DNA of 32,000 nucleotides from Thermoplasmata archaeon. GTDB lineage: Archaea; Thermoplasmatota; DTKX01; VGTL01. Position numbers and translations under genes: made by a program. Shown here piece by piece: positions 4,907 to 27,228 of the stretch. How positions within the stretch are numbered: position 1 is the stretch's first letter; the number at the start of each line of letters is the position of its first letter. The notes under the pieces were generated by a model. It was not told the DNA's origin, did not search any database, and worked only from the letters and a program-made list of their open reading frames with translations. The stretch is taken from positions 198-32,197 of the forward strand of contig JAWCLH010000025.1 of the NCBI GenBank assembly GCA_038851035.1. Direction: 5' to 3'.

Positions 4907-5595
4907 GGGACGCAGCCGATTCCGGAGGACCTGCAGTGCCTCAGGAGGTTTCCTCTGGCGAAGACGACGTCCGCGTGCTGCGCGGCGCAGCGGTCCGAGA
5001 TTCCGTCGCCGATGAAGACGGTCCGGAAGCCCCCTCTCCTGAAGGCCTCGATATGAGCTCTCTTGCAATTCCCGCAGAGGCCGCAAAGAGGGCTGGCGTG
5101 GGGGTGCTGGACTCGTATCCCGATTTTAGTGAAAACCGCGCGGTTCGCCATGAAGGGGACCCTCAGGCCCCTCTCGCGCAAAAAACTCCTGATGTAGAAG
5201 TCCAAGCCCTCGCTCACGATGACCACGGGAGCGCCCTCCGCGCGCGCCCACTCCAGCAGCTCCCCGAAGCCCGGCCTCAGGTGAATTCCACGGACGAACC
5301 TTCCGATTTCCCCTGGGGTCGCCCTGACCTGCGAGAACTCCCTCTCCATCGTCTCGCGCAGGGTGATGCGCCCCTCGCGCAGCGCCCGGTCTGCGGACCT
5401 CCAGCGCCCCCCGCTGAACCTCTCCAGGATGGATACAGAGACCTCCTCGACCGTGACGGTTCCATCGAAGTCGCAGAGAATGGCCAGGCGGGGCTGCCCT
5501 ATTCCCTGAGGACGGGACCGGCATGCAGGCCGGGGAGTTGCCCCTCTGGCGCGATTCTGCTCGCGCACCTGCCCGCGGGCCCGCTCCGTTTCCAT
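4789..5595 (-). CDS. HAD-superfamily phosphatase, MtnX-like (subfamily IB)
   Basis: Motif I ILCDFDGTVT, SEGLDFYI, the Cys cluster HPHASPLCGLCGNCK, motif IGDGISD, then VVFARGNLL..C....VPYDDFFDV. This order parallels B. subtilis MtnX. The start is uncertain: ATG 5595 has a G-rich stretch upstream, and the alternative is ATG 5658. The track start at 5982 overlaps the upstream gene and is rejected. Confidence 0.7.
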   Translation of the reverse strand: METERARGQVREQNRARGATPRPACRSRPQGIGQPRLAILCDFDGTVTVEEVSVSILERFSGGRWRSADRALREGRITLRETMEREFSQVRATPGEIGRFVRGIHLRPGFGELLEWARAEGAPVVIVSEGLDFYIRSFLRERGLRVPFMANRAVFTKIGIRVQHPHASPLCGLCGNCKRAHIEAFRRGGFRTVFIGDGISDRCAAQHADVVFARGNLLRHCRSSGIGCVPYDDFFDVLWALRRITARGRKEAAAAERTKTKRSGRDRE

Positions 5596-5684
5596 AACCC
5601 CCCCGTCCCATCGCACCCCGGCGATTTCCGTCGGCTGTTCAACATCTCTCAGCTCCATCCGGAGCTGGGCGAGACAGGGCCAGC

Positions 5685-6551
5685 CTAATCCTCCGTCCTC
5701 CGGGGCTCCCGGCCACGCTCCCCGCGAGACCTCCCTAGCCTCGGTATCGCCTCCGCGGGGAAGCACTTCTCCTCCGGCCCCCCGCCCTTCCCGCCGGGCC
5801 CCTCGGAGAAGAATGTACCATCCACAACAAGGACGCCCGGCGGGGCCTCGACGTCCGACACGAAGCCGAACCAGTAGACCACCATCCCGTTGCCGAAGAG
5901 CTTGACATAGGGGAGAAGCTGCTTCCTGAGGTTCCTCCTGAGCTCGACGACGTCGCCAAAGTTGGCCTTGGACTCTATCCACGAGACCCTCCTGCCCTTT
6001 ATGGTCACGGGCTTCATGAAGAGGACGTCGGGCGTCTTCGTGTAGCGGTCCCTGAGCTTCTTCAGGTCCTTCTCGGTCATGTACTTTATCCCCCGCCTAT
6101 CCAGCCACTCGAAGAGCCTCCTCTCCCCCTCCTGCCCCCTGAGCCTTTGGAGCTCCTCGCCTTTCGGGGAGTAGACCACGTCCTTCTCGAGGGCCGCGGC
6201 GAGCTCCCGCCTCATCCTCGGGTCGCAAGCGAGTTCGGGCTTGTGCACAAGGCTCCAGAACTGCTTCCGGGGCATGCCCTTGTGCAGAAAGAGGAGGTAG
6301 GCAAGGAGCACTGGCGGGAACCTGAGCCTCCGCGCGAGCTCGACCAGAGGGACGCCGCGATCGTACTGCTGGGCAATTCTCCCGATCTGATTCTTGATGA
6401 CGTAGAACCTGCTCGTTGCGTCCCTCGTGACGCGCTGGGTGTATATCACGAGCGCCAGCTCCTCAGGTATCCCGACCTCACGCGCCACCTTCTTTATGTC
6501 GTCAACATCATTCAGGCGGGCGGCGATCTGACGGTATTCGTCCTGGTTCAT
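5685..6551 (-). CDS. TPD-sequence-motif protein (CDIN1/C15orf41-like): N-terminal helix-turn-helix region plus PD-(D/E)xK nuclease domain
   Basis: RYTKTPDVLF...VSWIESKANFGD gives the D...ExK nuclease signature with the eponymous TPD motif. The helical N-terminal half is HTH-like. Confidence 0.65.
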   Translation of the reverse strand: MNQDEYRQIAARLNDVDDIKKVAREVGIPEELALVIYTQRVTRDATSRFYVIKNQIGRIAQQYDRGVPLVELARRLRFPPVLLAYLLFLHKGMPRKQFWSLVHKPELACDPRMRRELAAALEKDVVYSPKGEELQRLRGQEGERRLFEWLDRRGIKYMTEKDLKKLRDRYTKTPDVLFMKPVTIKGRRVSWIESKANFGDVVELRRNLRKQLLPYVKLFGNGMVVYWFGFVSDVEAPPGVLVVDGTFFSEGPGGKGGGPEEKCFPAEAIPRLGRSRGERGREPRRTED

Positions 6552-17316: not shown

Positions 17317-18600
17317 ATGAGCCTGAAAACCGCCCTCTTCGCCATCCTCGTCTGCGGAGTTCTTTTGACCGCCGGGGCGACCTATACCTTCCTGCGGCCG
17401 CAGGCCAGGACCGGAAAAGCGCCTGCGGGGCCCGCGGAGCCGGAAAATGACCTGCCCTCCCCGGCGAACCTGCAGGAGCTGGTCAACGCCAGCAACCGGT
17501 TCGCGCTGGAGCTATATGCCGGGCTGAGCAATGGCGGCGAAAACATCTTCTTCTCGCCATACAGCATCTTCACCGCGCTCGGGATGACCTATGAGGGGGC
17601 GCGGAACAGGACGGCGGAAGAGATTCGCGCCGTCCTCCACCTCCCCGCGGACAACCAGACCCGCTGGTCGCTCTTCAAAGCGCTCATCGAGCGCCTGAGC
17701 GCCGGGGGCGCGGGCTGCAACCTCTCCACCGCAAACGCGATGTGGATACAGCGGGACTTCAATATCCTAAGCGATTATGTGAACACGGTCCAGACCTACT
17801 ATAGGGCCAGCGCATTCAGCGTTGATTATGCCCGGGCCGCGGAGGAGGCGAGGCAGAGAATCAACTCGTGGGTCGAGGACCAGACCGGCGGCAGAATAAA
17901 GGATTTGATTCCTCAGGGCATCCTCAACCCGCTCACGCGCCTAGTCCTGACGAACGCGATCTACTTCAGGGGCGACTGGCTGAAGCGGTTCAACGAGTCC
18001 CTGACTGAGGAAAAGGACTTCCACCCCCGGCCGGGCGAGAGCGTCAGGGTCGATATGATGGCGCGGAAGGACGAGAAATCGGTCTTCAACTACACCTCCG
18101 TGGACGGCATCCAGATTCTCGAGATGCCCTACGCCGGCGGGAAACTATCCATGCTCGTCCTCCTACCCGGGCCGGGAGAGATGGAGGGGCTGGAGGCAAA
18201 GCTGAGCCCGCGGAAGCTGGAGGAGTGGAGGTCGAAGCTGAGGGAGCGGCGCGTCGACGTTTTCTTCCCAAAGTTCAGGCTCGAGAGGAGGTACTTCCTG
18301 AATGATAATCTTTCGAGAATGGGCATGCCGACCGCTTTCAGCATGGATTCGGACTTCTCTGGAATCGACGGCGCTCAGGACCTCTACATAGCAGCGGTGA
18401 TTCATCAGGCCTTCGTCTCCGTTGATGAGAGGGGAACGGAGGCCGCGGGGGCGACGGCGGTGGTCATCGAGTACAGGAACGCCCCCGTCGAGCCCGCGGT
18501 TCCCGTATTCAACGCCGACCACCCGTTCGTATTCATCATTCAGGACAGGGAGACCGGCAGCATCCTCTTCATGGGGAAGGTGGTTGACCCGACGAAGTGA
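17317..18600 (+). CDS. Serpin (serine protease inhibitor) with N-terminal signal/anchor; predicted P1 = Arg
   Basis: FFSPYSIFTALGMTYEGA, NAIYFRGDW and the hinge/reactive-centre loop ERGTEAAGATAVVIEYR-NAPVEP followed by FNADHPFVFIIQD..G.ILFMGKVVDP. Counting from hinge Gly P15 places Arg (codon 18475-18477) at P1. Confidence 0.9.
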   Translation: MSLKTALFAILVCGVLLTAGATYTFLRPQARTGKAPAGPAEPENDLPSPANLQELVNASNRFALELYAGLSNGGENIFFSPYSIFTALGMTYEGARNRTAEEIRAVLHLPADNQTRWSLFKALIERLSAGGAGCNLSTANAMWIQRDFNILSDYVNTVQTYYRASAFSVDYARAAEEARQRINSWVEDQTGGRIKDLIPQGILNPLTRLVLTNAIYFRGDWLKRFNESLTEEKDFHPRPGESVRVDMMARKDEKSVFNYTSVDGIQILEMPYAGGKLSMLVLLPGPGEMEGLEAKLSPRKLEEWRSKLRERRVDVFFPKFRLERRYFLNDNLSRMGMPTAFSMDSDFSGIDGAQDLYIAAVIHQAFVSVDERGTEAAGATAVVIEYRNAPVEPAVPVFNADHPFVFIIQDRETGSILFMGKVVDPTK

Positions 18601-18689
18601 CGCCCTCCTCCACTCCCCGCCCTGCGGGACAGGTCCCCCATCTGCTCTCCCGGAATTCTCTTGCGATGGAACTCCAGATTTCCGGTCTT

Positions 18690-19013
18690 CTACAATTTCC
18701 CTTCCCTTGCCCTCTTCTGAAGCTTTTTCGCGCGCTCCTTCGCCGTGAAGCCGGTGGCGCGCTCGAGGAAGGCGTTGTAGGCCTTTATCGTGCTCGAGGC
18801 GACGTCGGGCGGGACGGAGGGGTTCATTTTCGTCTCGACCTTCAGCACACCCCCACCGTCCCAGACCACCGTCAGCCTCTCAATGGCCCCGTAGCTCGAG
18901 ACCAGGGCCCCGCCCTCCTTGGTCACATTGCCGAAGGCCTCCTGCATCATCGCCCTCAGCCCCCCGGCCTCGAGATTCTTCTGGTGCCCACGCCGAATCT
19001 CGTAGTCCTGCAT
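18690..19013 (-). CDS. Small conserved-looking hypothetical protein (107 aa) with Lys/Arg-rich C-terminal tail
   Basis: MQDYEIRRGH...TIKAYNAFLERATGFTAKERAKKLQKRAREGKL has a globular-looking composition and clear G/C preference at third codon positions. A TATA-like AGATATTTCT on the minus strand lies about 36 nt upstream. The track ORF extends to 19547, but that extension is repeat-derived (see the rejected list). The family is not recognised with certainty. Confidence 0.55.
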   Translation of the reverse strand: MQDYEIRRGHQKNLEAGGLRAMMQEAFGNVTKEGGALVSSYGAIERLTVVWDGGGVLKVETKMNPSVPPDVASSTIKAYNAFLERATGFTAKERAKKLQKRAREGKL

Positions 19014-19131
19014 CCGCGCACCGGCGGTGAATCTCCGCTCCCGTAGAAATATCTGTCGCGGCGGGCGGCCGGAGGACTGGCTCCGCGGGCGGGCAGAAGG
19101 GACGGGGGGCGGCGGCCGGGACGGCGGGCGC

Positions 19132-19265
19132 GCGTGGAGGCGGAGGGGGAAGAAGCAGACAGGTTCGCGGGTAGGCGGAGGAGAGAGCGGAGGGTTTGCG
19201 TGGAGGCGGAAGATGGAGCGGACAGGTTCGCGAGAAGGCGGGTGGGTGAAGATGGATATGGGGAT
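19132..19265. repeat. Two clear copies, plus about 2 degenerate copies extending to ~19380, of a 63-66 bp direct repeat in a purine-rich spacer
   Basis: GCGTGGAGGCGGA occurs at 19132-19144 and 19198-19210. GACAGGTTCGCG occurs at 19158-19169 and 19221-19232. Weaker GCGGA[AT]GG...TTC/GG units follow at about 19265 and about 19349. Confidence 0.75.
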
Positions 19266-19463
19266 GCGGAAGGAAAAGTTCACGGGCGGGTTGAGAGAGA
19301 GGCGGATGAGGATGTGGAAGTAATGGGGGAGAGTGGGGTGCAGGAGATTGCGGATGGGAAGGCGGAATTGGAATCGGCATGGCCCGCGGGGGCCTCGGGC
19401 GGCTCGTCCGGGCCCGCCCGCGCGACCGCAAACATTATTTTCCAGCAGATGTGAATAGGTGTC

Positions 19464-19631
19464 ATGAGCATTGTGGGGACCTGCCACCTCTGCGGCCGGC
19501 CGGCCATGCTCTCCTGCCCCCTTTGCGGGCGGGTTGTCTGCAACCAATGCCTTGACGCCGGCGGCAGGGTTTGCAGGATGTGCCGCAGGAAGCTGGATTC
19601 TCAGTTAAACTCCGACGACATAATGGGATGA
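19464..19631 (+). CDS. Small zinc-finger protein (55 aa, four CxxC pairs, HIT/cross-brace-like spacing); absent from the ORF track (<60 aa)
   Basis: My translation: MSIVGTCHLCGRPAMLSCPLCGRVVCNQCLDAGGRVCRMCRRKLDSQLNSDDIMG, ending in TGA at 19629-19631. The spacing is C-x2-C-x7-C-x2-C-x4-C-x2-C-x7-C-x2-C. TATA-like CATTATTTT (19433-19441) is centred about 27 nt upstream of the ATG, so a leaderless mRNA is predicted. Confidence 0.65.
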   Translation: MSIVGTCHLCGRPAMLSCPLCGRVVCNQCLDAGGRVCRMCRRKLDSQLNSDDIMG

Positions 19632-19700
19632 GGCTTGGAATCCGGCTGGACCATTGACGGCGCCAGAGCCCAAGCGTTTCCACGCGTGTGTCGGCGAGTG

Positions 19701-20924
19701 TTACACCGTTCTACGAAAGGGCCTGCGCCCCCCGCTGCTGTGGCGAGGAGCGCGCTGGGCCCTAGTGTCCGCTCTCAGGTCCCTATAGAGTCGCTCGGTG
19801 GCTCTTATGTGTCCCGGAAAGTCCTCTATGCTTCTCGATAGCTTTAGGCCGCCCGAGCCGATTCTGCGCGCCAGACCTTCGTCCCTGACAAGCTCGCGCA
19901 GCCGCCGCGCAAAGCCCTCCGTGTCCCCCGGCCTGACCACGGCCGCGCTCTCGCCATCGACAAGCCTCCCTCCGGCGACCTTGGCCGCGAGCTCATCACT
20001 GACGATAAGGCATGTCCCGCAGGCCAGAACCTCGCGGGCCAGAATCGGCGTGTGGGTCCGCACAGGGAAGCGGTGCTCGGGCATGACGACGCACCTCGCC
20101 GCCCGGATCAGCCCTGGCATCCTCCACGGCGGGACGAACCTTCTGGTTATTACTCGGGGACGGAGGCGCCTTGGAATTCTAAGGGCGCGCAGGCCGGCGG
20201 CGTCCGAGGAGACGATAAGAAGCCTGAACTCCTCCGGAATTTTGGCGGCCGCGGCCAGCAGCTCGGGAACCCCCTTCCCCCTCGTCAGCTTGCCAGCGTA
20301 GAGGAGCAATGGCACCCCCTCCGGTACGTCCAGCCTCTCGGGCCGCGCCCGCGGGCTGAAGGCGGAGGTGTCGACCGAGAGCGGGATCTCATGAATTCTT
20401 GAGGGCGCTGCCCCTAGCGCCTCCAACCGGGGTCTCGCGCCGGGCTGCGCGACCACCGCGTCGGCCGTACCGAGGAGCGCGGCGACGAGTGGCCTCAAGT
20501 GGGGGCTGCTCCCGAGCCTTACCAGGTCGCTCGCGGCGTGCCTCAGAACGAGGGGCAGCCCCGTGGCGAGCTTCGCCAGCGCGGCCGCAGCACCGTAGCT
20601 GATGAGGTACCACGCGTCCAGCACCTGCGCGCCCTCCGCCTCCTCGATTGCGGCCGAGGCGAGCTTCTCGCAGAATGGGTTCGACTCGGGAATCAGCTGG
20701 TGGTCCTGAAACGGGTCTGTATTCCTCACCCTGACCCCGCGGCCCTGATAGGAATCGATATCCGGGCCGTGCAGCTCCTCGCGGTGGCGGTCCTCGACCT
20801 CGAAGGCATTCGTCACGACGGTCACCCTGTGCCCCCTCGAGGCCAGCCCGCGCGCGAGCCAGTAGGTGCAGGATGATACGTACCCCTCGATGGGCGGGTA
20901 CTTGGAGACAAGAACGAGCTTCAT
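19701..20924 (-). CDS. GT-B fold glycosyltransferase (GT4-like)
   Basis: The N-terminus MKLVLVSKYPPIEGYVSSCTYWLARGLASRGHRVTVVT is typical of GT4 N-domains. The C-domain shows LLLYAGKLTRGKGV and ...VVMPEHRFPVRTHTPILAREVLACGTCLIVSDE (an E-x7-E-like region). Its ATG lies 7 nt after the stop of the upstream small ORF. Confidence 0.8.
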   Translation of the reverse strand: MKLVLVSKYPPIEGYVSSCTYWLARGLASRGHRVTVVTNAFEVEDRHREELHGPDIDSYQGRGVRVRNTDPFQDHQLIPESNPFCEKLASAAIEEAEGAQVLDAWYLISYGAAAALAKLATGLPLVLRHAASDLVRLGSSPHLRPLVAALLGTADAVVAQPGARPRLEALGAAPSRIHEIPLSVDTSAFSPRARPERLDVPEGVPLLLYAGKLTRGKGVPELLAAAAKIPEEFRLLIVSSDAAGLRALRIPRRLRPRVITRRFVPPWRMPGLIRAARCVVMPEHRFPVRTHTPILAREVLACGTCLIVSDELAAKVAGGRLVDGESAAVVRPGDTEGFARRLRELVRDEGLARRIGSGGLKLSRSIEDFPGHIRATERLYRDLRADTRAQRAPRHSSGGRRPFRRTV

Positions 20925-20931
20925 AGATGGC

Positions 20932-21135
20932 TCACGGGACGCAGCCTATGCAGCTCCCGCAGACGGTGGTGCACCCTCCACCGCAGCCCCCGCAGCCGCC
21001 GCCGCAGCCCCCGCAGCCACCGTCGCAGCCGCCGCAGCCGTGGTCGGCGCGGCGCGGGCCGCGCGCGCGCCGGGCGCGGCACCCTGCCCAGAAGGCGAAC
21101 CTGCGGAGCTCCCTCAGCTCTTCCTCAGTCGGCAA
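20932..21135 (-). CDS. Candidate precursor peptide: 67 codons, charged/Arg-rich N-terminal half and Cys/Gly-repeat C-terminal half
   Basis: (TTG)PTEEELRELRRFAFWAGCRARRARGPRRADH-GCGGCDGGCGGCGGGCGGCGGGCTTVCGSCIGCVP. The only start-type codon is TTG at 21135. It is preceded by GGAGGGTGGTG (GGAGG at 21146-21150, 10-nt spacing), overlaps the rSAM stop, and ends 7 nt before the GT start. All Cys codons are TGC, while Gly codons vary (GGC/GGT/GGG/GGA). The caveats are the non-ATG start and the low-complexity GC-rich DNA. Confidence 0.55.
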   Translation of the reverse strand: MPTEEELRELRRFAFWAGCRARRARGPRRADHGCGGCDGGCGGCGGGCGGCGGGCTTVCGSCIGCVP

Positions 21136-22213
21136 TTCCCACCACCCTCCAGCACTGCGGGTCCGCCGCCATTGGGTCCCCGGAGACCCCGTGGGCCACC
21201 GCCATGCAGCCCCGGCAGAACGGCAGCAGCCTGCATCGGGAGCACCTCCTCATCCTCTCGTAGGAGCGGAGGCTTCGATGCCCGTCGGAATAGATAAATA
21301 TTTCCCTGAGGCTGGCCCCGGGCACCTTCCCGATTATTACGGGCAGCCTCCGGCAGGACAGGACGGTCCCGTCGGCGAGGATTGTGAGAATTCTGTAGCC
21401 CACCGAGCACCCCGAGTATATCACGCCCCTCTCGCGTGGGAGCCGCGGGAGAAGGCCGAGCTCGTGGTAGAGGAGGGTCCAGAGGTTCTCCTTGCGGCCG
21501 AAGTGCGTCCCGCAGCCCTCCGCCCGGAGGCGCCTGTACTCCTCGAGGACCTGGAGGAGCAGCTCGCGGTACTCCTCCGGCGCCAGGAGCTGGTTTTTGA
21601 GCGCCCTCCCGCTCCCTGTCGGAACGAGGCGGGCGAAGTCGAAGACCCTGACGCCCTCGCTCGCACAGAGACGAATCACGGGTATAAGCTCGGCCGCGTT
21701 CAGGCGGCTGACGGTGAACATGACTACGGACGGAAGGTCCACAGCGTTCAGGATGCGTATCGCCCGAATAGCGTCCCTGAAGGCCCCCCTCCGGCCCCGC
21801 AAGGCGTCGTGGGTCCTCTCAAGCCCGTCGATGCTTATCTGGTACCTGACCACGCCGGCGTCCCTGAGCTCCCTCGCTTTCTTTTTCGTTAAAAGACGCG
21901 GGTTCCCCAGAATGCCGACCATCATGCCCATCGAACTGGCTCTCCTGCAAAGGTCCGTCAGGTCCTTCCTGAGCAGGGGGTCGCCGCCGCTGAAACTTAC
22001 CCTCCCCCTCACCCCCCAGGCCTCGAGGGTTTCTCCGAAGTCCTCCAGAACTCTCACGCACTCCTCGGGGCCGAGCTCGTTCCTGAGCTCCGATTCATAG
22101 GTTGGGGAATCGTGCATGTAGCAGTGCCTGCACCTCTCTCCGCATCTCGCGGTCAGGTGCCACTGGAGGACGAAGAGCCTCCTGTCCTGCGGGAGCTCAG
22201 TTGCCGGGGGCAT
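21125..22213 (-). CDS. Radical SAM enzyme with C-terminal SPASM domain (peptide/protein maturase-type)
   Basis: CGERCRHC (C24-x3-C28-x2-C31; 22121-22144), the GGDPLL SAM-binding motif, and the full 7-Cys SPASM pattern C269-x12-G-x4-C287 ... C324-x2-C327-x5-C333-x2-C336 ... C354 (21152-21409). It ends ..DPQCWRVVGIAD. Confidence 0.9.
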   Translation of the reverse strand: MPPATELPQDRRLFVLQWHLTARCGERCRHCYMHDSPTYESELRNELGPEECVRVLEDFGETLEAWGVRGRVSFSGGDPLLRKDLTDLCRRASSMGMMVGILGNPRLLTKKKARELRDAGVVRYQISIDGLERTHDALRGRRGAFRDAIRAIRILNAVDLPSVVMFTVSRLNAAELIPVIRLCASEGVRVFDFARLVPTGSGRALKNQLLAPEEYRELLLQVLEEYRRLRAEGCGTHFGRKENLWTLLYHELGLLPRLPRERGVIYSGCSVGYRILTILADGTVLSCRRLPVIIGKVPGASLREIFIYSDGHRSLRSYERMRRCSRCRLLPFCRGCMAVAHGVSGDPMAADPQCWRVVGIAD

Positions 22214-22718
22214 GGGACTGCAGCAGCCTCGCGGCCTCTGCCGGCTCGAGGTCTAGGGCCCTAGCGAAATAAGTCAGGGCCTTTCCGCGCGCGCGGTCGA
22301 GTTCCTCTCGCGAGACCTCATCCTCCATTCCTCTTAACACGGCCATGTAGAGCTCGATTCCGAGGTCGGAGAAATAGTAGGGCGCGTTCTCGGGGTCGAG
22401 CTCCGCGGCTTTTTTATAGCATTCCTCGGCCAGCTCCGTCTTTCCCTCGCGCAAGCAGAAAGCGCCGAGCTGGGTCTGGGTCATCGCCCTCTCGCCCGGC
22501 TCCTTCTGGAGTTCTATAGCCTTCTGATAGCTCGCCACTATCTCTCCCGCCTCAATGTCAGGCAAAGCCGCGGCAGCCTCCGCCTTCCCCAGATAGGCCT
22601 CGGCGTTGGAGGGGTCGAGCTTTATCGCGCGGTTGAAGCGTGACAGGGCCCCCTTGTAGTCCCCCGCGGCCAGAAGCCTCTGGCCCGCGGCCACCTCCTT
22701 CGACGCGTCCTCGGGCAT
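22197..22718 (-). CDS. Tetratricopeptide-repeat (TPR) protein
   Basis: GDYKGALSRFNRAIKLDPSNAEAYLGKAEA and AEECYKKAAELDPENAPYY are TPR consensus stretches. ATG 22718, preceded by GGAGCGAGG, is preferred. The track start at 22949 would cross the A/T-rich divergent promoter region. The stop overlaps the rSAM start by 17 nt. Confidence 0.7.
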   Translation of the reverse strand: MPEDASKEVAAGQRLLAAGDYKGALSRFNRAIKLDPSNAEAYLGKAEAAAALPDIEAGEIVASYQKAIELQKEPGERAMTQTQLGAFCLREGKTELAEECYKKAAELDPENAPYYFSDLGIELYMAVLRGMEDEVSREELDRARGKALTYFARALDLEPAEAARLLQSHAPGN

Positions 22719-22744
22719 CCTCGCTCCCCGGGGGAGCCAATCGT

Positions 22745-22840
22745 GGACCACGATATTAATCTTGTTCTCTTCCGTCCACGCCCCACTACCCTTCGAAAAT
22801 AATAAATGCTCACTGGAGGATGAGGCATTGAGGAATAAAT
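22745..22840. promoter_or_regulatory. A/T-rich divergent promoter region
   Basis: TTAATAT on the minus strand (22754-22760) lies about 38 nt upstream of ATG 22718. AAAATAATAAAT on the plus strand (22796-22807) lies about 40 nt upstream of TTG 22841, with GAGG at 22830-22833. Confidence 0.45.
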
Positions 22841-23587
22841 TTGTTCTGGCCGCGTGCTCCGGCGGTTCTGCTGCAAATCGCGCCGCATGATACCGGCTGG
22901 ACGCCTCAGGAGTACCTTCCCCCGCCCCCGCGTCCCCAGGGTCATCCACTGCCCCTCCTTTTCAGGGTCGGCGCCATCGGTCTGCTCCTGATGGCCGCGG
23001 CCAGCTTTGCAGCCCTCCTCCTCATCGGACACACTCTCTTTCGCCCAGGGACGGATCCGTCAACCGCAGAGCGCTGGTTTCCGTTCATCCCTGCCCTGAT
23101 GTGCTGCGGCTCCCTTCTGTCGGCGGTGGGGTACTTCAGCAAACTACACCACTACGGCTCGGCCATAGGCGCGGTCACAGGAGGTTCCCTAGTTCCGGCA
23201 ACATTGATGTTTATGGATTTTCTCCTGTCCTCCTCGCAAATCCGACTGACTTATTATTGGGATGTCTTTGGGTGGGGAGCGGCAATGTTCTTCTTTTTCG
23301 GTGTCTGCGCGATACTGATGGGCGTTTCCCATATCGTCTCCCGCTTCCATATGGGTCACCCCTATCTCGGTGGGACCGCCGGAATTTTCTTCATTCTCTC
23401 AGGGGCCTTCTTCCTGTCCTATTTCCTGTTTCCAATTGGCATCGCCCTCTTTTTTGGCGCCTCCATCTGCGGCGCCTTGAACCTTATGCTGGCCAGATAC
23501 TATGAATACTGGCCCGGGGGGGCACTGGAGCCGCCGAACTCTCCGAACTACCCGCGCTGGCCCCCTCCGGTCGAAAAGGTGCGATGA
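22841..23587 (+). CDS. Polytopic membrane protein of unknown function (~6 TM helices)
   Basis: Successive hydrophobic helices (GAIGLLLMAAASFAALLLIG; FPFIPALMCCGSLLSAVGYF; GWGAAMFFFFGVCAILMGV; GIFFILSGAFFLSYFLFPIGIALFFGASICGAL). GC is visibly lower than in neighbouring genes. The start is uncertain: TTG 22841 has a GAGG 7 nt upstream, and the next in-frame ATG (22991) would cut TM1. Confidence 0.6.
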   Translation: MFWPRAPAVLLQIAPHDTGWTPQEYLPPPPRPQGHPLPLLFRVGAIGLLLMAAASFAALLLIGHTLFRPGTDPSTAERWFPFIPALMCCGSLLSAVGYFSKLHHYGSAIGAVTGGSLVPATLMFMDFLLSSSQIRLTYYWDVFGWGAAMFFFFGVCAILMGVSHIVSRFHMGHPYLGGTAGIFFILSGAFFLSYFLFPIGIALFFGASICGALNLMLARYYEYWPGGALEPPNSPNYPRWPPPVEKVR

Positions 23588-23615
23588 GCGTCCTCGGGTC
23601 GGGGCGCCGGCCCTC

Positions 23616-25154
23616 TCAAAGTATCGGCGTGTTCCTGAGCCACTCGAGGTCCGGGAGGTAGAGCCGGCGCATGTCGTCTATGCCGTAGCGCTTCATCACC
23701 AGCCTCTCGAGCCCGAGACCCCACGCCAGAACAGGGTGCTTTATGCCAAACGGCGCGGTCACCTCAGGGCGGAAAATCCCAGCCCCCCCGAGCTCCATCC
23801 AGCTGCCGTCGAAGAAGACCTCGACGTCGAGCGAGGGCTCGGTGTAGGGGTAGTAGGAGGGCCTGAATCGAATACCGGTGAATCCCATCCTCTCGTAGAA
23901 CTCCTTGAGCGTCCCCATGAGCATTCGGAAGGAGGCTCCCTCCTCCATGATTATACCCTCGATCTGGTGGAACTCGGCCAGGTGCGTCGCGTCGGTGGCC
24001 TCGCGTCTGAACACCCTGCCGACCGAGAAGGCCTTGACGGGCGGCTCCGGGTGCTCTGAGAGGTAGCGGATGGTGTTGACGGTGGTGTGGGTGCGCAGGA
24101 GCGCCCTCGATGCCTCCTCCTCCGACCATCTGTAGCGCCAGCCGTCCGAGCCGGTGTCGCCGCCGGTCTCGTGTATCTGCCTTATCAGCTCAGGGAGTCG
24201 GGGCGGGAGCTCGATTCTCGGTGGATTCTTCAGGTAGAAGGTGTCCTGCGCGTCCCGAGCGGGGTGGTCCTGCGGGATGAACAGGACGTCCATGTCCCAG
24301 AAGCAGGACTCGACGAAGTCGCCCTCTATCTCGGTGAAGCCCATGTGCAGGAATATGCTCCGAATTCTCTTTATCGCCTCGCGCAGGATGTGGGGCTTGC
24401 CACCTTGCGCCGCTGGGGCATAGGTATTTACATCGTAGGGCCTGAGCTCCACACCCCTCCAGGCCCCGCTGGTGATGAGCTCGGGCGTGAGCTGGGTCAG
24501 CTCCTCGCCGACCTCCAGCCCGGCCTCGACGAGCTTTCTGCCCCTCTCCGTGAGAACCAGCGTCCTCAGTCGCCTCTCCCTCGCCCTCAGCAGGCCTTTG
24601 CGCGTCAGGAGGAGAGGGAGCGAGCTGGCCCCGATTCTGCGCGCCTCGTCCTCCGGCAGACCGCCCTCCCGCCCCGCGGCCCTCAGGAGCGCAAGCTCCT
24701 CGCCCTCCGGCCCCCTTCTTAGGGCTTCGCGGCCCTCATCCGTGAGAGATATCCAGCTCCTCCCCGCCTCCTTCAGGATGCTGGCCCAGCCATTCCTCCT
24801 CAGCCACCCAAGGGCGACTCTCAGCTCCTCGGAGCCCATTCCAGGGGGCTTCAGCGCGCCCATCTCAACCCTCCCGCCCCTCCCCAGCTCCTCCAGCACC
24901 CTCAGGAGGGTGAACTCTGGGAGCTCGCCCCTCTCCACGTACCTTCTCCCCTCGTCATCGAGGAAGTAGGTGGTCTGAATTCGCTCGTGGATTTCCAGAA
25001 GCCCCTTCGACCTGAGCCACGAGGCCGCGCTCATCACCTCGACCAGCTCCCGGAAGCCTCCCTCCCTCACCACGTCCTCCGGGGCCGCGCTCCCCAGCCT
25101 TGAGATCGCGAGCAGGACCCTCCTCTCGTTCCTCGAGAGCTCCTCCGCAGCCAT
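23616..25154 (-). CDS. pheS: Phenylalanine--tRNA ligase alpha subunit, archaeal type
   Basis: FLHMGFTEIEG.FVES.FWDMDVLFIPQDHPARD.QDTFYL, motif 2 FRRE..DATHLAEFHQIEG, and motif 3 GAGIFRPEV. The long N-terminal winged-helix-like extension is typical of archaeal/eukaryal PheS. Confidence 0.92.
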   Translation of the reverse strand: MAAEELSRNERRVLLAISRLGSAAPEDVVREGGFRELVEVMSAASWLRSKGLLEIHERIQTTYFLDDEGRRYVERGELPEFTLLRVLEELGRGGRVEMGALKPPGMGSEELRVALGWLRRNGWASILKEAGRSWISLTDEGREALRRGPEGEELALLRAAGREGGLPEDEARRIGASSLPLLLTRKGLLRARERRLRTLVLTERGRKLVEAGLEVGEELTQLTPELITSGAWRGVELRPYDVNTYAPAAQGGKPHILREAIKRIRSIFLHMGFTEIEGDFVESCFWDMDVLFIPQDHPARDAQDTFYLKNPPRIELPPRLPELIRQIHETGGDTGSDGWRYRWSEEEASRALLRTHTTVNTIRYLSEHPEPPVKAFSVGRVFRREATDATHLAEFHQIEGIIMEEGASFRMLMGTLKEFYERMGFTGIRFRPSYYPYTEPSLDVEVFFDGSWMELGGAGIFRPEVTAPFGIKHPVLAWGLGLERLVMKRYGIDDMRRLYLPDLEWLRNTPIL

Positions 25155-25180: not shown

Positions 25181-26485
25181 TTAAAGCTTTTCAGACATCC
25201 GACGCCCCCTCCCGAGCTCTAGCTTTGCGGTGAGGATTTTCTCCGTCGAGAAAACGCGCGCCGCCAGGGCCAGGACTCCCGCGGTGAAGAGGGCCTGATA
25301 CAGTATCCCCAGCGCCACGACGAGGTACTGGTGCGTGTAGAGGGCGCGGGAGGCGATTATCGGGTAGGAGAACGGAATCGCCAGAATCACCGCTTGGAGC
25401 CAGCCCGGGAGGGACTCCACCGGCGAGAACATCAGGACGATGGCCGGAATCATTATGGGTATGTAGAGGACGCCCATCAAGGACTGGGCGCTGCGCACGT
25501 CCTTCGTGAACACGGAGAACAGGACCGCGAGCGAGAGGGCGGAGACGAACGAGAGCAGCAGCGACGCACCGAGAAGGGCTATGCCCTCGGCAGGCGGAGC
25601 GAGGCCGAGCGATGCCAGGTCCAGGTCGCCCGCGCCGATTCCGAGGCTGCTGAAATAGAAAGAGAACCCGACGAGGTAGGAGGCGGTCGCTAGGAGCGAG
25701 ACCAGAACCACGCCCGCGAGCTTCCCGAGCAGGATGCTCACCCTCCTCACCGGGAGCGTCAGGAGGACCTCGAGCGTCTTCTGCTCCTTCTCCATCGCCA
25801 CAGAGGTCGCGGCGAGCTGTCCGGCCATTATTAAAAGAATCATCAGGGCCACCGGCATTGAGAACGAGGAGCCCATTATCGCGGCACCGACCAGAGTGGG
25901 GTCGGCATCCTTTGGCTCGCCGTGAATCACGCTGAGCGCTTTCGTCACCAGAGGCCGGGTCAGGTTTGGGGCGCTCTCGTTCGGGTAGGCCCTCTGCAGC
26001 CTCTCGGTCACGACCGCGTCGTTGAAGACCTCGACGGCAGACAAGAGCCTCTGGTGCACCGTGCTCTCGGCGATGGAATAGTCACGCATGATTCCGTAGA
26101 TCCTGACTTCGGCCGGCTTCAGCGCCTCGAGCCTCTCGGAGAAGTCGGGGGTAACCGCGACGAGCGCAATCTCCCCGCCCTCGAGCGCGCTCCGGAGCGC
26201 CGAGGTCTCATCAGCCGCGCTGATGTTCCGGACGGTGAGGTTGGACGCAACGAGGACCGCGCCCAGGAGAGTGGAGTAGGTTTCGTTGCCATCGAGGGAA
26301 TCCGTAGAGAAGAGGCCCACGGCCGCGCTCTCCACGCCCCGCTCCGCCGCCTCGCGCGAAGAGCCGATGGCGCCTCCTAGCACAGGGAATATGAGCATTG
26401 GGACGAGAACCATCCCCACTAGTAGCTTCGGGTCCCGCACCATCTCCCTGAGCTCCTTCCCCGCGATGTTCGCCAGAGGCCCCAT
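25181..26485 (-). CDS. ABC-2 type transporter permease (NatB-like)
   Basis: MGPLANIAGKELREMVRDPKLLVGMVLVPMLIFPVL is the typical ABC-2/NatB N-terminus. There is a large extracytoplasmic loop and 5 C-terminal TM helices. The ATG (26483-26485) shares one nt with the TGA of the ATPase gene (TGATG), and the track start at 26593 is rejected. Confidence 0.8.
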   Translation of the reverse strand: MGPLANIAGKELREMVRDPKLLVGMVLVPMLIFPVLGGAIGSSREAAERGVESAAVGLFSTDSLDGNETYSTLLGAVLVASNLTVRNISAADETSALRSALEGGEIALVAVTPDFSERLEALKPAEVRIYGIMRDYSIAESTVHQRLLSAVEVFNDAVVTERLQRAYPNESAPNLTRPLVTKALSVIHGEPKDADPTLVGAAIMGSSFSMPVALMILLIMAGQLAATSVAMEKEQKTLEVLLTLPVRRVSILLGKLAGVVLVSLLATASYLVGFSFYFSSLGIGAGDLDLASLGLAPPAEGIALLGASLLLSFVSALSLAVLFSVFTKDVRSAQSLMGVLYIPIMIPAIVLMFSPVESLPGWLQAVILAIPFSYPIIASRALYTHQYLVVALGILYQALFTAGVLALAARVFSTEKILTAKLELGRGRRMSEKL

Positions 26486-27228
26486 CACGCCCCACCCCCG
26501 GCCGCGCGCTCCACACCAACTACTGTGATGAACAGCTCCTCGAGGTTCCTCACACCGCGCTCCTCCATCAGCTCCCGCGGCGCGCCAGTGCACGCTATTC
26601 TTCCACCGTGCAGAATCGCGACGCGGTCGCAGAGGTACTCCACCTCGAGCAGGTTGTGGCTCGAGACCAGCGCGGCCGTCCCGGTCTCCCTCACCCTCTC
26701 CCTTATCACCCTGCGGATGTGGTGGGCGTGCAGGACGTCGAGCCCGGAGGTCGGCTCGTCGAGGATGTAGAGACGGGAGTCGGTCATCAGCGTCCGACCG
26801 ATCAGGAGGCGCCGCCTCATGCCACGGCTGTACTCTTTCGTCCGGGAGCGAATTCTATCGCCGAGACCGGCGATTCGGGCCCCGCGCCGAACCGCCTCCT
26901 CGGGGTCGCCGGGGTAGAACCGGGCCATGAAGCGCAAGTACTCCTCGCCCGTGAGGTTCTCGTAGGCCCCGGCCTCCTCGGGGAGGTAGGATATGATTCT
27001 CCTGACCTCGTCCCTCTCCCTCACGACGTCGTGGCCCCAGACCTCCGCCCTCCCCGCTGTGGGCACTAGCAGGGTGGCGGCGATGCGAATCGCAGTGCTC
27101 TTTCCGGCCCCGTTTGGGCCGATGAGGCCGAATATCTCTCCGGCCTCGACCGTGAGGTCCACCCCGTCCAGCGCCCGCACGCCGGAGTGGTAGTCCTTGA
27201 CCAGTCCGCACATCTCGAGTGCGTGCAT
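26485..27228 (-). CDS. ABC transporter ATP-binding protein
   Basis: Walker A GPNGAGKST, Q-loop, signature-like YSRGMRRRL, Walker B LYILDEPTSGLD, and H-loop SSHNL. Confidence 0.92.
   Translation of the reverse strand: MHALEMCGLVKDYHSGVRALDGVDLTVEAGEIFGLIGPNGAGKSTAIRIAATLLVPTAGRAEVWGHDVVRERDEVRRIISYLPEEAGAYENLTGEEYLRFMARFYPGDPEEAVRRGARIAGLGDRIRSRTKEYSRGMRRRLLIGRTLMTDSRLYILDEPTSGLDVLHAHHIRRVIRERVRETGTAALVSSHNLLEVEYLCDRVAILHGGRIACTGAPRELMEERGVRNLEELFITVVGVERAAGGGA

Follow-up and report, generated by a model that had tools for sequence, protein, structure and literature searches.

A four-gene operon around a Cys/Gly-rich open reading frame

Positions 19701–22718 of the 32,000-nucleotide stretch analyzed here, part of contig JAWCLH010000025.1 from a Thermoplasmata archaeon (henceforth termed the window), carry four minus-strand genes for a tetratricopeptide repeat (TPR) protein, a radical S-adenosylmethionine (rSAM) enzyme with a SPASM domain, a small peptide, and a GT4 glycosyltransferase (GT). 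An original prediction, made from the sequence alone, had proposed that they form an undescribed archaeal pathway for a peptide made by the ribosome and modified post-translationally (RiPP), with the small open reading frame (ORF) as the substrate of the rSAM enzyme. The tight packing that it described is reproduced by the ORF coordinates. The end of the TPR gene (22197–22718, minus strand) overlaps the start of the rSAM gene (21125–22213, minus strand; 362 aa) by 17 nt at 22197–22213, the rSAM stop and the start of the small ORF (20932–21135, minus strand; 67 aa from a TTG codon) overlap by 11 nt at 21125–21135, and a 7-nt gap (20925–20931) separates the small-ORF stop from the ATG of the GT gene (19701–20924, minus strand; 407 aa). 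For the TPR gene, whose mechanical ORF extends to a GTG at 22949, the ATG at 22718 is preferred because the resulting 173-aa protein matches homologues of 166–170 aa. The rSAM and GT proteins each have a GenBank entry with 100% identity. The A/T-rich region reported upstream of this gene also lies where it had been placed: patches TTTATTATTTT and ATTAATAT occur at 22745–22849 (minus strand), and the GC content at 22790–22849, a stretch with TATA-like runs, is 0.38 compared with ~0.65 in the rest of the window. We infer that 22745–22849 is a candidate archaeal promoter of the operon. An Rfam scan of 18500–23700 matched no family.

Purifying selection acts on the small ORF

The small ORF lies in a spacer of 73% GC DNA that contains a 21-nt tandem repeat (7 aa, CGGCGGG) at 20981–21040, encoding the peptide core, and another frame of this spacer stays open over 53 codons. 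Since an open frame of 67 codons proves nothing by itself in such DNA, we compared relatives. These properties, together with the lack of any Pfam or NCBIfam model match for the peptide, are what would be expected if the ORF were a chance frame in a low-complexity (GGC)n spacer between two real genes. Close relatives, defined as contigs with an rSAM protein 67–80% identical to that of the window and extending past the rSAM stop, point the other way. Every one of them keeps the same frame between the rSAM and GT genes. The position of the start codon is conserved (TTG in the window, GTG or ATG in the relatives), as is the stop, which overlaps the GT start as ATGA in most relatives, and the core CxGC[DE]GGCGGCGGGCGGCGGGCT[ST]VCG[GS]C[IV]GCVP is almost invariant. 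Among 11 distinct DNA sequences, variable sites in the Cys/Gly frame are distributed 3/2/25 over the three codon positions. Pairwise synonymous and non-synonymous codon differences number 464 and 122 in the peptide frame, compared with 55 and 560 or 107 and 507 in the other frames. Moreover, AT-rich genomes encode the same leader and Cys-rich core, and GenBank lists the peptide as a hypothetical protein called by PGAP (exact match MEM2870365.1). The conserved frame, start, and core, the codon-position bias, and the excess of synonymous differences in the peptide frame alone thus establish the small ORF as a genuine gene under purifying selection. The codon-substitution pattern led us to reject a chance ORF, which we regard as extremely improbable. 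Conservation of the frame between rSAM and GT, a check that the original prediction had proposed, was hence found in the relative contigs.

A conserved leader precedes a cysteine-repeat core

The window peptide has an N-terminal leader with the motif L-x-x-[FY]-x-x-W, present as L10-R-R-F-A-F-W16 (21088–21108, minus strand), and a core of ~34 residues, CGGCDGGCGGCGGGCGGCGGGCTTVCGSCIGCVP (20935–21036, minus strand), which is nearly invariant in the 11 distinct relatives; the leader/core boundary is approximate. Ten Cys residues, spaced 3–4 residues apart with two or three Gly between them, occupy the core. Beyond the close relatives, rSAM homologues with 40–61% identity adjoin small ORFs that combine this leader motif with a Cys/Gly/Ser-rich C-terminus. 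Such peptide neighbours were found in Argoarchaeum, Firestonebacteria, Planctomycetota, Thermodesulfobacterium, DPANN archaea, the candidate phyla radiation (CPR), and Chlorobium. An alignment of 27 peptides encoded beside rSAM homologues in archaea and bacteria yields the consensus [LIM]-x-x-[FY]-x-x-W about 10–17 residues from the start. Examples are the peptides of Ca. Argoarchaeum (...CNSCAGCGGGGCGGCGGP, from three tandem genes), Firestonebacteria (...CSSCSSCGSCRGCNA), Thermodesulfobacterium (...CGCGGGCSCSIGCGGSC...), and a DPANN archaeon (MSSPKSILEKYDYWN...ECGGCGGCGGGG); those of Chlorobium and CPR bacteria are similar in leader and core. In the Ca. Argoarchaeum ethanivorans locus (L011 in our set of rSAM- and GT-homologue loci, numbered L001 onwards), the three tandem precursor genes (5141–5719; 56, 52, and 54 aa) share the leader motif and differ in their Cys/Gly cores; a 192-aa membrane-like ORF and a GT homologue follow.

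The peptide matches no Pfam or NCBIfam model, for NCBIfam even at E ≤10, and canonical peptides of the related ACGX system (see below) give the same null result. Weak matches to heterocycloanthracin (E 0.006–0.025) were dismissed as a reflection of CGG composition only. The peptide does fit generic criteria for a RiPP precursor, being short, under purifying selection, composed of a conserved leader and a distinct core, and encoded beside a peptide-modifying enzyme. The small ORF, a selected gene, is also the most plausible substrate of the rSAM enzyme, as originally proposed.

Ten Cys residues within 34 positions, separated by small spacers, would bind soft metals even without modification. 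The peptide might accordingly be a metallothionein-like chelator that is left unmodified, and the rSAM enzyme and the GT would then belong to other pathways, e.g., for making cofactors or the cell envelope. The peptide matches no model in Pfam or NCBIfam, and hence no metallothionein family. Its leader motif is common to both domains of life and always occurs beside the rSAM gene, and the gene is translationally coupled on both sides, by the 11-nt overlap upstream and by the 7-nt gap or ATGA overlap downstream, which is difficult to reconcile with a free-standing chelator. Further evidence on this alternative comes from the two enzymes.

The rSAM/SPASM enzyme resembles ACGX maturases

The rSAM enzyme carries the expected CX3CX2C motif (C24/C28/C31) and seven C-terminal cysteines (C269, C287, C324, C327, C333, C336, and C354) that are invariant among 16 homologues. 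The SPASM spacing is CX2CX5CX2C, compared with the textbook CX2CX5CX3C, so that the predicted seven-Cys signature is present with a shortened last interval. Pfam detects only Radical_SAM (residues 20–181) and SPASM (269–327) and no PqqD/RiPP recognition element (RRE). With just 23 residues ahead of the cluster motif and Pfam domains that begin at residue 20, the enzyme cannot accommodate an N-terminal RRE, in agreement with the original prediction. The nearest solved structure by sequence is SkfB, a thioether-forming RiPP maturase, and an AlphaFold2 (AF2) model (pLDDT 83) has its nearest solved neighbours in SkfB, PqqE, SuiB, and anSME.

A scan against NCBIfam matched 58 families, of which the best 25 were listed. 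The highest score was obtained for TIGR04340, the radical SAM/SPASM domain protein of the ACGX system, with a full-length alignment at 276.5 bits (E 3e-82; cutoff 400). The thio(seleno)oxazole maturase SbtM (TIGR04082) followed with 205.8 bits (cutoff 350) over model positions 197–515 of 516. Scores were lower for AhbD (161.3 bits, cutoff 500), NirJ (127.9 bits, cutoff 515), SkfB (84 bits, cutoff 300), and StsB (64.5 bits, cutoff 625). The PapB family (cutoff 340) was not among the best 25 families for the window enzyme and scored 57–82 bits for its relatives. Placement in a non-peptide family, which the original prediction had named as the outcome that would count against it, was not observed: ACGX and SbtM head the matches, the haem-type families AhbD and NirJ stay far below their cutoffs, and no haem-pathway genes neighbour the enzyme in the operon. 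A haem or cofactor function was therefore rejected, and the window rSAM protein is a predicted peptide maturase. This result also weakens the idea that the rSAM gene serves a pathway unrelated to a metallothionein-like peptide.

The original prediction had named the bacterial CXXX-repeat system as the closest concept. This system likewise pairs an rSAM/SPASM protein with a peptide of periodic Cys residues. Its maturase model, however, is absent from the best 25 of the 58 matched families, each with a score of 52 bits or more; the ACGX, SbtM, and haem-type SPASM families are closer. We therefore rejected this classification, and the ACGX system takes its place.

Could the operon then be an ordinary ACGX system, a TIGR04340 enzyme with an ACGX-repeat peptide, beside which the GT and TPR genes lie without any relation to it? 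The best NCBIfam match and its end-to-end alignment would fit, and JGI annotates homologues with 54–68% identity as 'radical SAM/SPASM domain protein of ACGX system'. The two systems share an RRE-less rSAM/SPASM enzyme of ~345–360 aa without N-terminal extension and with the same seven SPASM cysteines, and a short peptide in which an N-terminal leader is followed, at the C-terminus, by a Cys repeat with small residues on either side. The score of the window enzyme nevertheless falls well short of the cutoff, and members of the wider clade reach only 290–341 bits, whereas control enzymes from true ACGX-peptide loci score 531.5 (Collinsella) and 584.1 bits (Methanobacteriaceae). A neighbour-joining tree of 99 rSAM proteins groups the ACGX loci in a single derived clade, outside which the window sequence falls; the Thermoplasmata enzymes nest instead among sequences from Argoarchaeum, Planctomycetota, Firestonebacteria, and Thermodesulfobacterium. 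By sub-cutoff score and separate clade, the window enzyme is best placed as a sister of the ACGX maturases, outside TIGR04340 by curated criteria.

The peptides differ as well. The window core (CGGCDGGCGGCGGGCGGCGGGC...) is a CGG/CGGG repeat with no Ala before any Cys, whereas ACGX peptides repeat ACG[AST]ADP, and the window peptide is encoded downstream rather than upstream of the rSAM gene. Canonical ACGX peptides, e.g., MSENLENVAAF...PACGTACGSADP..., were found only beside rSAM proteins that are 33–38% identical to the window enzyme. A hidden Markov model (HMM) built from the leaders of the 27 clade peptides missed the canonical ACGX leaders among 6741 ORFs (best E 1.3), even though the two leader types look visibly alike (L-x-x-hydrophobic-A-x-[FW]). 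Without a significant ACGX match of the leader HMM, the two peptide types are related in concept, with homology unproven. Finally, the window clade has a GT4 partner in many phyla, joined by a TPR protein in Thermoplasmata, whereas a GT is absent from all ~50 canonical ACGX loci. Taken together, we consider ordinary ACGX membership unlikely. Canonical ACGX peptides from gut Coriobacteriia and Ruminococcus (L044–L091, e.g., L073 2945–3292 and L067 3572–3907) lie upstream of the rSAM gene, and their A-C-G-[ST]-A-D-P repeats give a Cys-x3-Asp spacing, which resembles that of the ranthipeptide freyrasin.

The ACGX system itself is defined by database curation; we found no experimental characterization and, in an incomplete literature search, no publication on TIGR04340/ACGX. 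On these grounds, the GT-linked clade with CGG/CSG repeats, which stays below every NCBIfam cutoff, is by sequence an uncharacterized relative of the ACGX system. The claim of an undescribed system consequently holds for this clade, for which no publication was found, and must be qualified in that a related class already exists in databases. The description of the system as archaeal does not stand, since the rSAM clade, the leader motif, and the GT extend to bacteria, among them Planctomycetota, Chlorobium, and CPR.

Among characterized enzymes, SbtM is the closest and acts on a Cys or selenocysteine of a ribosomal peptide. It differs in an N-terminal domain of ~195 residues that the window enzyme lacks; the window has no selenocysteine element, and the substrate offers ten Cys in a repeat. 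The sacti- and ranthipeptide maturases SkfB, CteB/SCIFF, and PapB are SPASM or twitch rSAM enzymes that form S–C thioethers at Cys residues in short Cys-rich peptides, and SkfB is the best PDB match of the window enzyme in both sequence and structure. These maturases contain an N-terminal RRE, in contrast to the window enzyme, and most repeats of the window peptide provide only Gly in place of an acceptor such as Asp or Thr.

A glycosyltransferase family accompanies Cys-repeat peptides

The GT gene product matches the Pfam families Glyco_transf_4 and Glycos_transf_1 with 52.8 and 42.8 bits (gathering thresholds (GA) 26.4 and 28.5). Its AF2 model (pLDDT 92) adopts a two-Rossmann GT-B fold, with the retaining GT4 enzymes GlgM, MshA, and BshA as best PDB matches (E ~1e-20). 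Across 26 homologues, G211, K212, E283, and E298 do not vary; the two Glu residues are spaced EX14E instead of EX7E. Judged from these residues, the GT4 donor-site signature is intact.

In tblastn searches with the window GT, full-length homologues (27–38% identity, E 1e-31 to 1e-89) were found adjoining rSAM genes, often abutting them. A homologous GT4 gene is adjacent to the rSAM gene in ~16 of ~35 non-Thermoplasmata loci from DPANN, Argoarchaeum, CPR, Planctomycetota, and Chlorobium, namely L010/11 (Argoarchaeum), L016 (Planctomycetota), L018, L019, L020 (Iainarchaeum), L022 and L055 (Woesearchaeota), L024, L032 (Shapirobacteria), L036 (Aenigmatarchaeota), L037, L038 (Chlorobium), L102, L104, and L108. 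The peptide/rSAM/GT module is thus conserved across archaea and bacteria.

More remote GT homologues, bacterial proteins of 637–698 aa with 31–40% identity, include several with a C-terminal PqqD/RRE domain (PF05402), which was confirmed in Sorangium protein P0182 (residues 589–646, 26.4 bits, GA 23.4). Three of the four inspected loci of this kind are MNIO (MbnB/TglH) clusters with Cys-repeat precursors ending in ...LCICNGCNCLCWAAKQ; ...ACHCLCVCACAS / ...SCACACACACSFG; and ...EVSCGGCNGCGGCAH / ...PPGCNGCNHCS, with ends also written as CGGCNGCGGC, ...SCGGCNGCGGCAH, ...CICNGCNCLC, and ...CACACACAC. The fourth locus encodes a ...CNCMARC... peptide, with no MNIO in view. Members of this GT family thus occur together with ribosomal Cys-repeat peptides in two settings whose enzymes are unrelated. 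As GT kin occur in both settings and are RRE-fused in one, they provide the strongest available argument that the peptide is the GT acceptor, and the proposed tie between GT and peptide gains support from distant lineages. Our incomplete literature search yielded no publication on GT-bearing rSAM or MNIO Cys-repeat clusters.

The same data bear on the metallothionein-like alternative. Among the structures nearest to the GT are enzymes with small-molecule or lipid substrates (MshA, BshA, PimA), as would be expected of a GT from an unrelated pathway, yet its relatives are fused to a peptide-binding RRE. Together with the coupled gene order, the shared leader, and the sub-cutoff haem-type scores, this makes an unmodified chelator distinctly improbable compared with a modified precursor.

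Two further observations concern these loci. Proteins of ~190 aa with an HE[LI]xH motif and no Pfam match lie beside rSAM and peptide genes in several bacterial loci, where they are candidate leader peptidases (L009 4569–5111; L015 ~2449–2862; L017 2381–2980; L019 3303–3878; L102 3228–3830, minus strand; L104 5511–6065). They replace or supplement the GT in some non-Thermoplasmata loci and are absent from the window. The MNIO clusters L172 (3913–8019), L173 (3742–7941), and L175 (2061–6247) encode GT homologues of 646–672 aa, two of the three with a C-terminal PqqD/RRE, and each contains an asparagine-synthase-like gene. A GT homologue with 39% identity also lies in L174 (680–11185), a large cluster that encodes a PqqD standing alone, an ABC-2 transporter, three rSAM/SPASM enzymes, and two membrane proteins resembling PMT_2 glycosyltransferases; we saw no precursor with Cys repeats in it.

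The TPR protein is confined to Thermoplasmata

The TPR protein matches Pfam TPR_11, TPR_1, and TPR_2, all above gathering. Homologues with 67–75% identity lie directly upstream of the rSAM gene in L001–L007, L012, and L092–L100 only, and the TPR gene precedes the rSAM gene in all Thermoplasmata-clade contigs that reach upstream of rSAM. Among the rSAM-homologue loci compared, no such partner was found outside this clade; a match in L103 was rejected, as the TPR protein there is unrelated and is encoded on the other strand, past a transposase gene. Given this confinement, the TPR protein is not a general leader reader. RRE-less rSAM enzymes in other phyla are paired with the same leader motif and have no TPR partner, so that the rSAM enzyme (and the GT) itself is the simplest candidate for reading the leader. 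The suggestion that the TPR protein substitutes for an RRE is weakened accordingly and might still apply within the Thermoplasmata lineage. Overall, the protein looks like a lineage-specific helper. OGT joins a TPR domain to a GT-B domain, and by this analogy the TPR protein could equally well assist the GT or the rSAM enzyme.

Proposed pathway and product

The four genes probably form a RiPP pathway in which Cys-centred rSAM chemistry is followed by glycosylation. In this proposal, the RRE-less rSAM/SPASM enzyme would bind the leader itself and, by means of a 5'-deoxyadenosyl radical and two auxiliary clusters, carry out chemistry at the Cys residues of the repeat. The outcome could be S–C thioether cross-links to neighbouring residues, for which mostly Gly is available, or else a four-electron oxidation of Cys to thiooxazole, as by SbtM, the closest characterized relative. 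Our weighting of the chemistry is rough: thioether formation comes first, though short of even chances, and thiooxazole-like and any other chemistry are each somewhat less likely and equal to one another. The GT4 enzyme would then transfer a hexose or N-acetylhexosamine from a nucleoside-diphosphate (NDP) sugar to the (modified) core, and the TPR protein may act as a Thermoplasmata-specific scaffold or chaperone for the rSAM enzyme or, like OGT, for the GT.

Several points weigh against this proposal. Since the rSAM enzyme reaches none of the curated family cutoffs, homology does not assign its reaction, and modification in both the window system and the canonical ACGX system is predicted from genes rather than known from experiment. 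Adjacency to the rSAM and peptide genes does not prove that the peptide is the GT acceptor, and we know of no established role of GT4 enzymes in RiPP tailoring. About half of the rSAM-clade loci lack a GT within the sequence covered, some carrying an HExxH protein instead, so that glycosylation is not obligatory for the clade. No protease, exporter, or NDP-sugar gene lies within the operon; the ABC-2 genes beyond pheS are at most a candidate peptide exporter.

The product would be a thiol- or heterocycle-rich peptide for metal binding or redox functions and probably not an antibiotic, because the operon lies in a housekeeping setting without dedicated protease or exporter and the system occurs in the reduced genomes of DPANN and CPR. 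Housekeeping neighbourhoods in DPANN, CPR, and Thermoplasmata likewise suggest a physiological role, e.g., in metal or redox handling in rarely cultured anaerobes.

A precedent for such a product exists among the MNIO metallophores. Bufferins and captophorins such as fontiphorin are made from Cys-rich repeat precursors in which several Cys residues become metal-binding heterocycles, and they serve in Cu homeostasis rather than as antibiotics (PMC11626156, PMC12668002). The rSAM enzyme SbtM turns Cys into thiooxazole with loss of 4 H (PMC11002830), and MNIOs form the same heterocycle in bufferins and captophorins, multi-Cys peptides that bind Cu (PMC11626156, PMC12668002). Some MNIO clusters encode a homologue of the window GT beside CGGC-type cores. 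The systems differ in that an O2-dependent di/tri-iron MNIO acts with an RRE partner, whereas the window has an anaerobic rSAM/SPASM enzyme and no MNIO, and no glycosylation was found reported for bufferins or captophorins (PMC11626156, PMC12668002). As a speculation that we consider doubtful, the rSAM clade might represent an anaerobic route to widespread, unrecognized glycosylated poly-Cys-derived peptides, possibly poly-thiooxazole metallophores, with MNIOs providing the aerobic counterpart in actinobacteria and myxobacteria. If true, an O2-independent and an O2-dependent enzyme would converge on one product class, with the GT4 and CGGC-type cores common to both, and this class would extend to DPANN and CPR, which are otherwise poor in secondary metabolism.

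ACGX-type rSAM systems have been in databases for more than 10 years without a known product. Their large sister clade spans both domains and offers a clean, highly repetitive substrate (ten Cys, CGG/CGGG) together with an extra conserved enzyme. As it comprises a single short peptide with two or three enzymes, it provides a tractable entry to what may be new radical chemistry directed at Cys and the first RiPP glycosyltransferase of the GT4 type. The RRE-fused GT kin in MNIO clusters with near-identical cores moreover link two unrelated Cys-modifying superfamilies to one probable product class.

Genomic neighbourhood of the operon

The housekeeping neighbourhood is kept among relatives and comprises an ABC-2 transporter, pheS, the operon, DUF5611, a serpin, and PTH2. 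The ABC-2 permease and ATPase genes lie at 25181–27228 (minus strand), with synteny kept in L003 and L004. The pheS–TPR interval is filled by a 248-codon hydrophobic ORF (22841–23587, plus strand) that is divergent from the operon and has no Pfam match; as this interval measures only ~112 nt in L003 and L004, the extra sequence represents either an insertion or a gene specific to the lineage.

On the other side of the operon, the ~690-nt gap between GT and DUF5611 contains a putative gene for a 55-aa protein with four CxxC pairs on the opposite strand (19464–19631, plus strand), for which B-box and prokaryotic RING Pfam matches are weak and below gathering. The same spacer includes a 31-nt tandem repeat (19154–19241; 2.8 copies, 75% match) and is ~330 nt longer in the window than in L003. 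A full-length serpin gene (17317–18600, plus strand; Pfam 397 bits) lies near the operon in these Thermoplasmata; it is also present in L003 (8224–9513) and in L006 (4888–7470), where it is duplicated.

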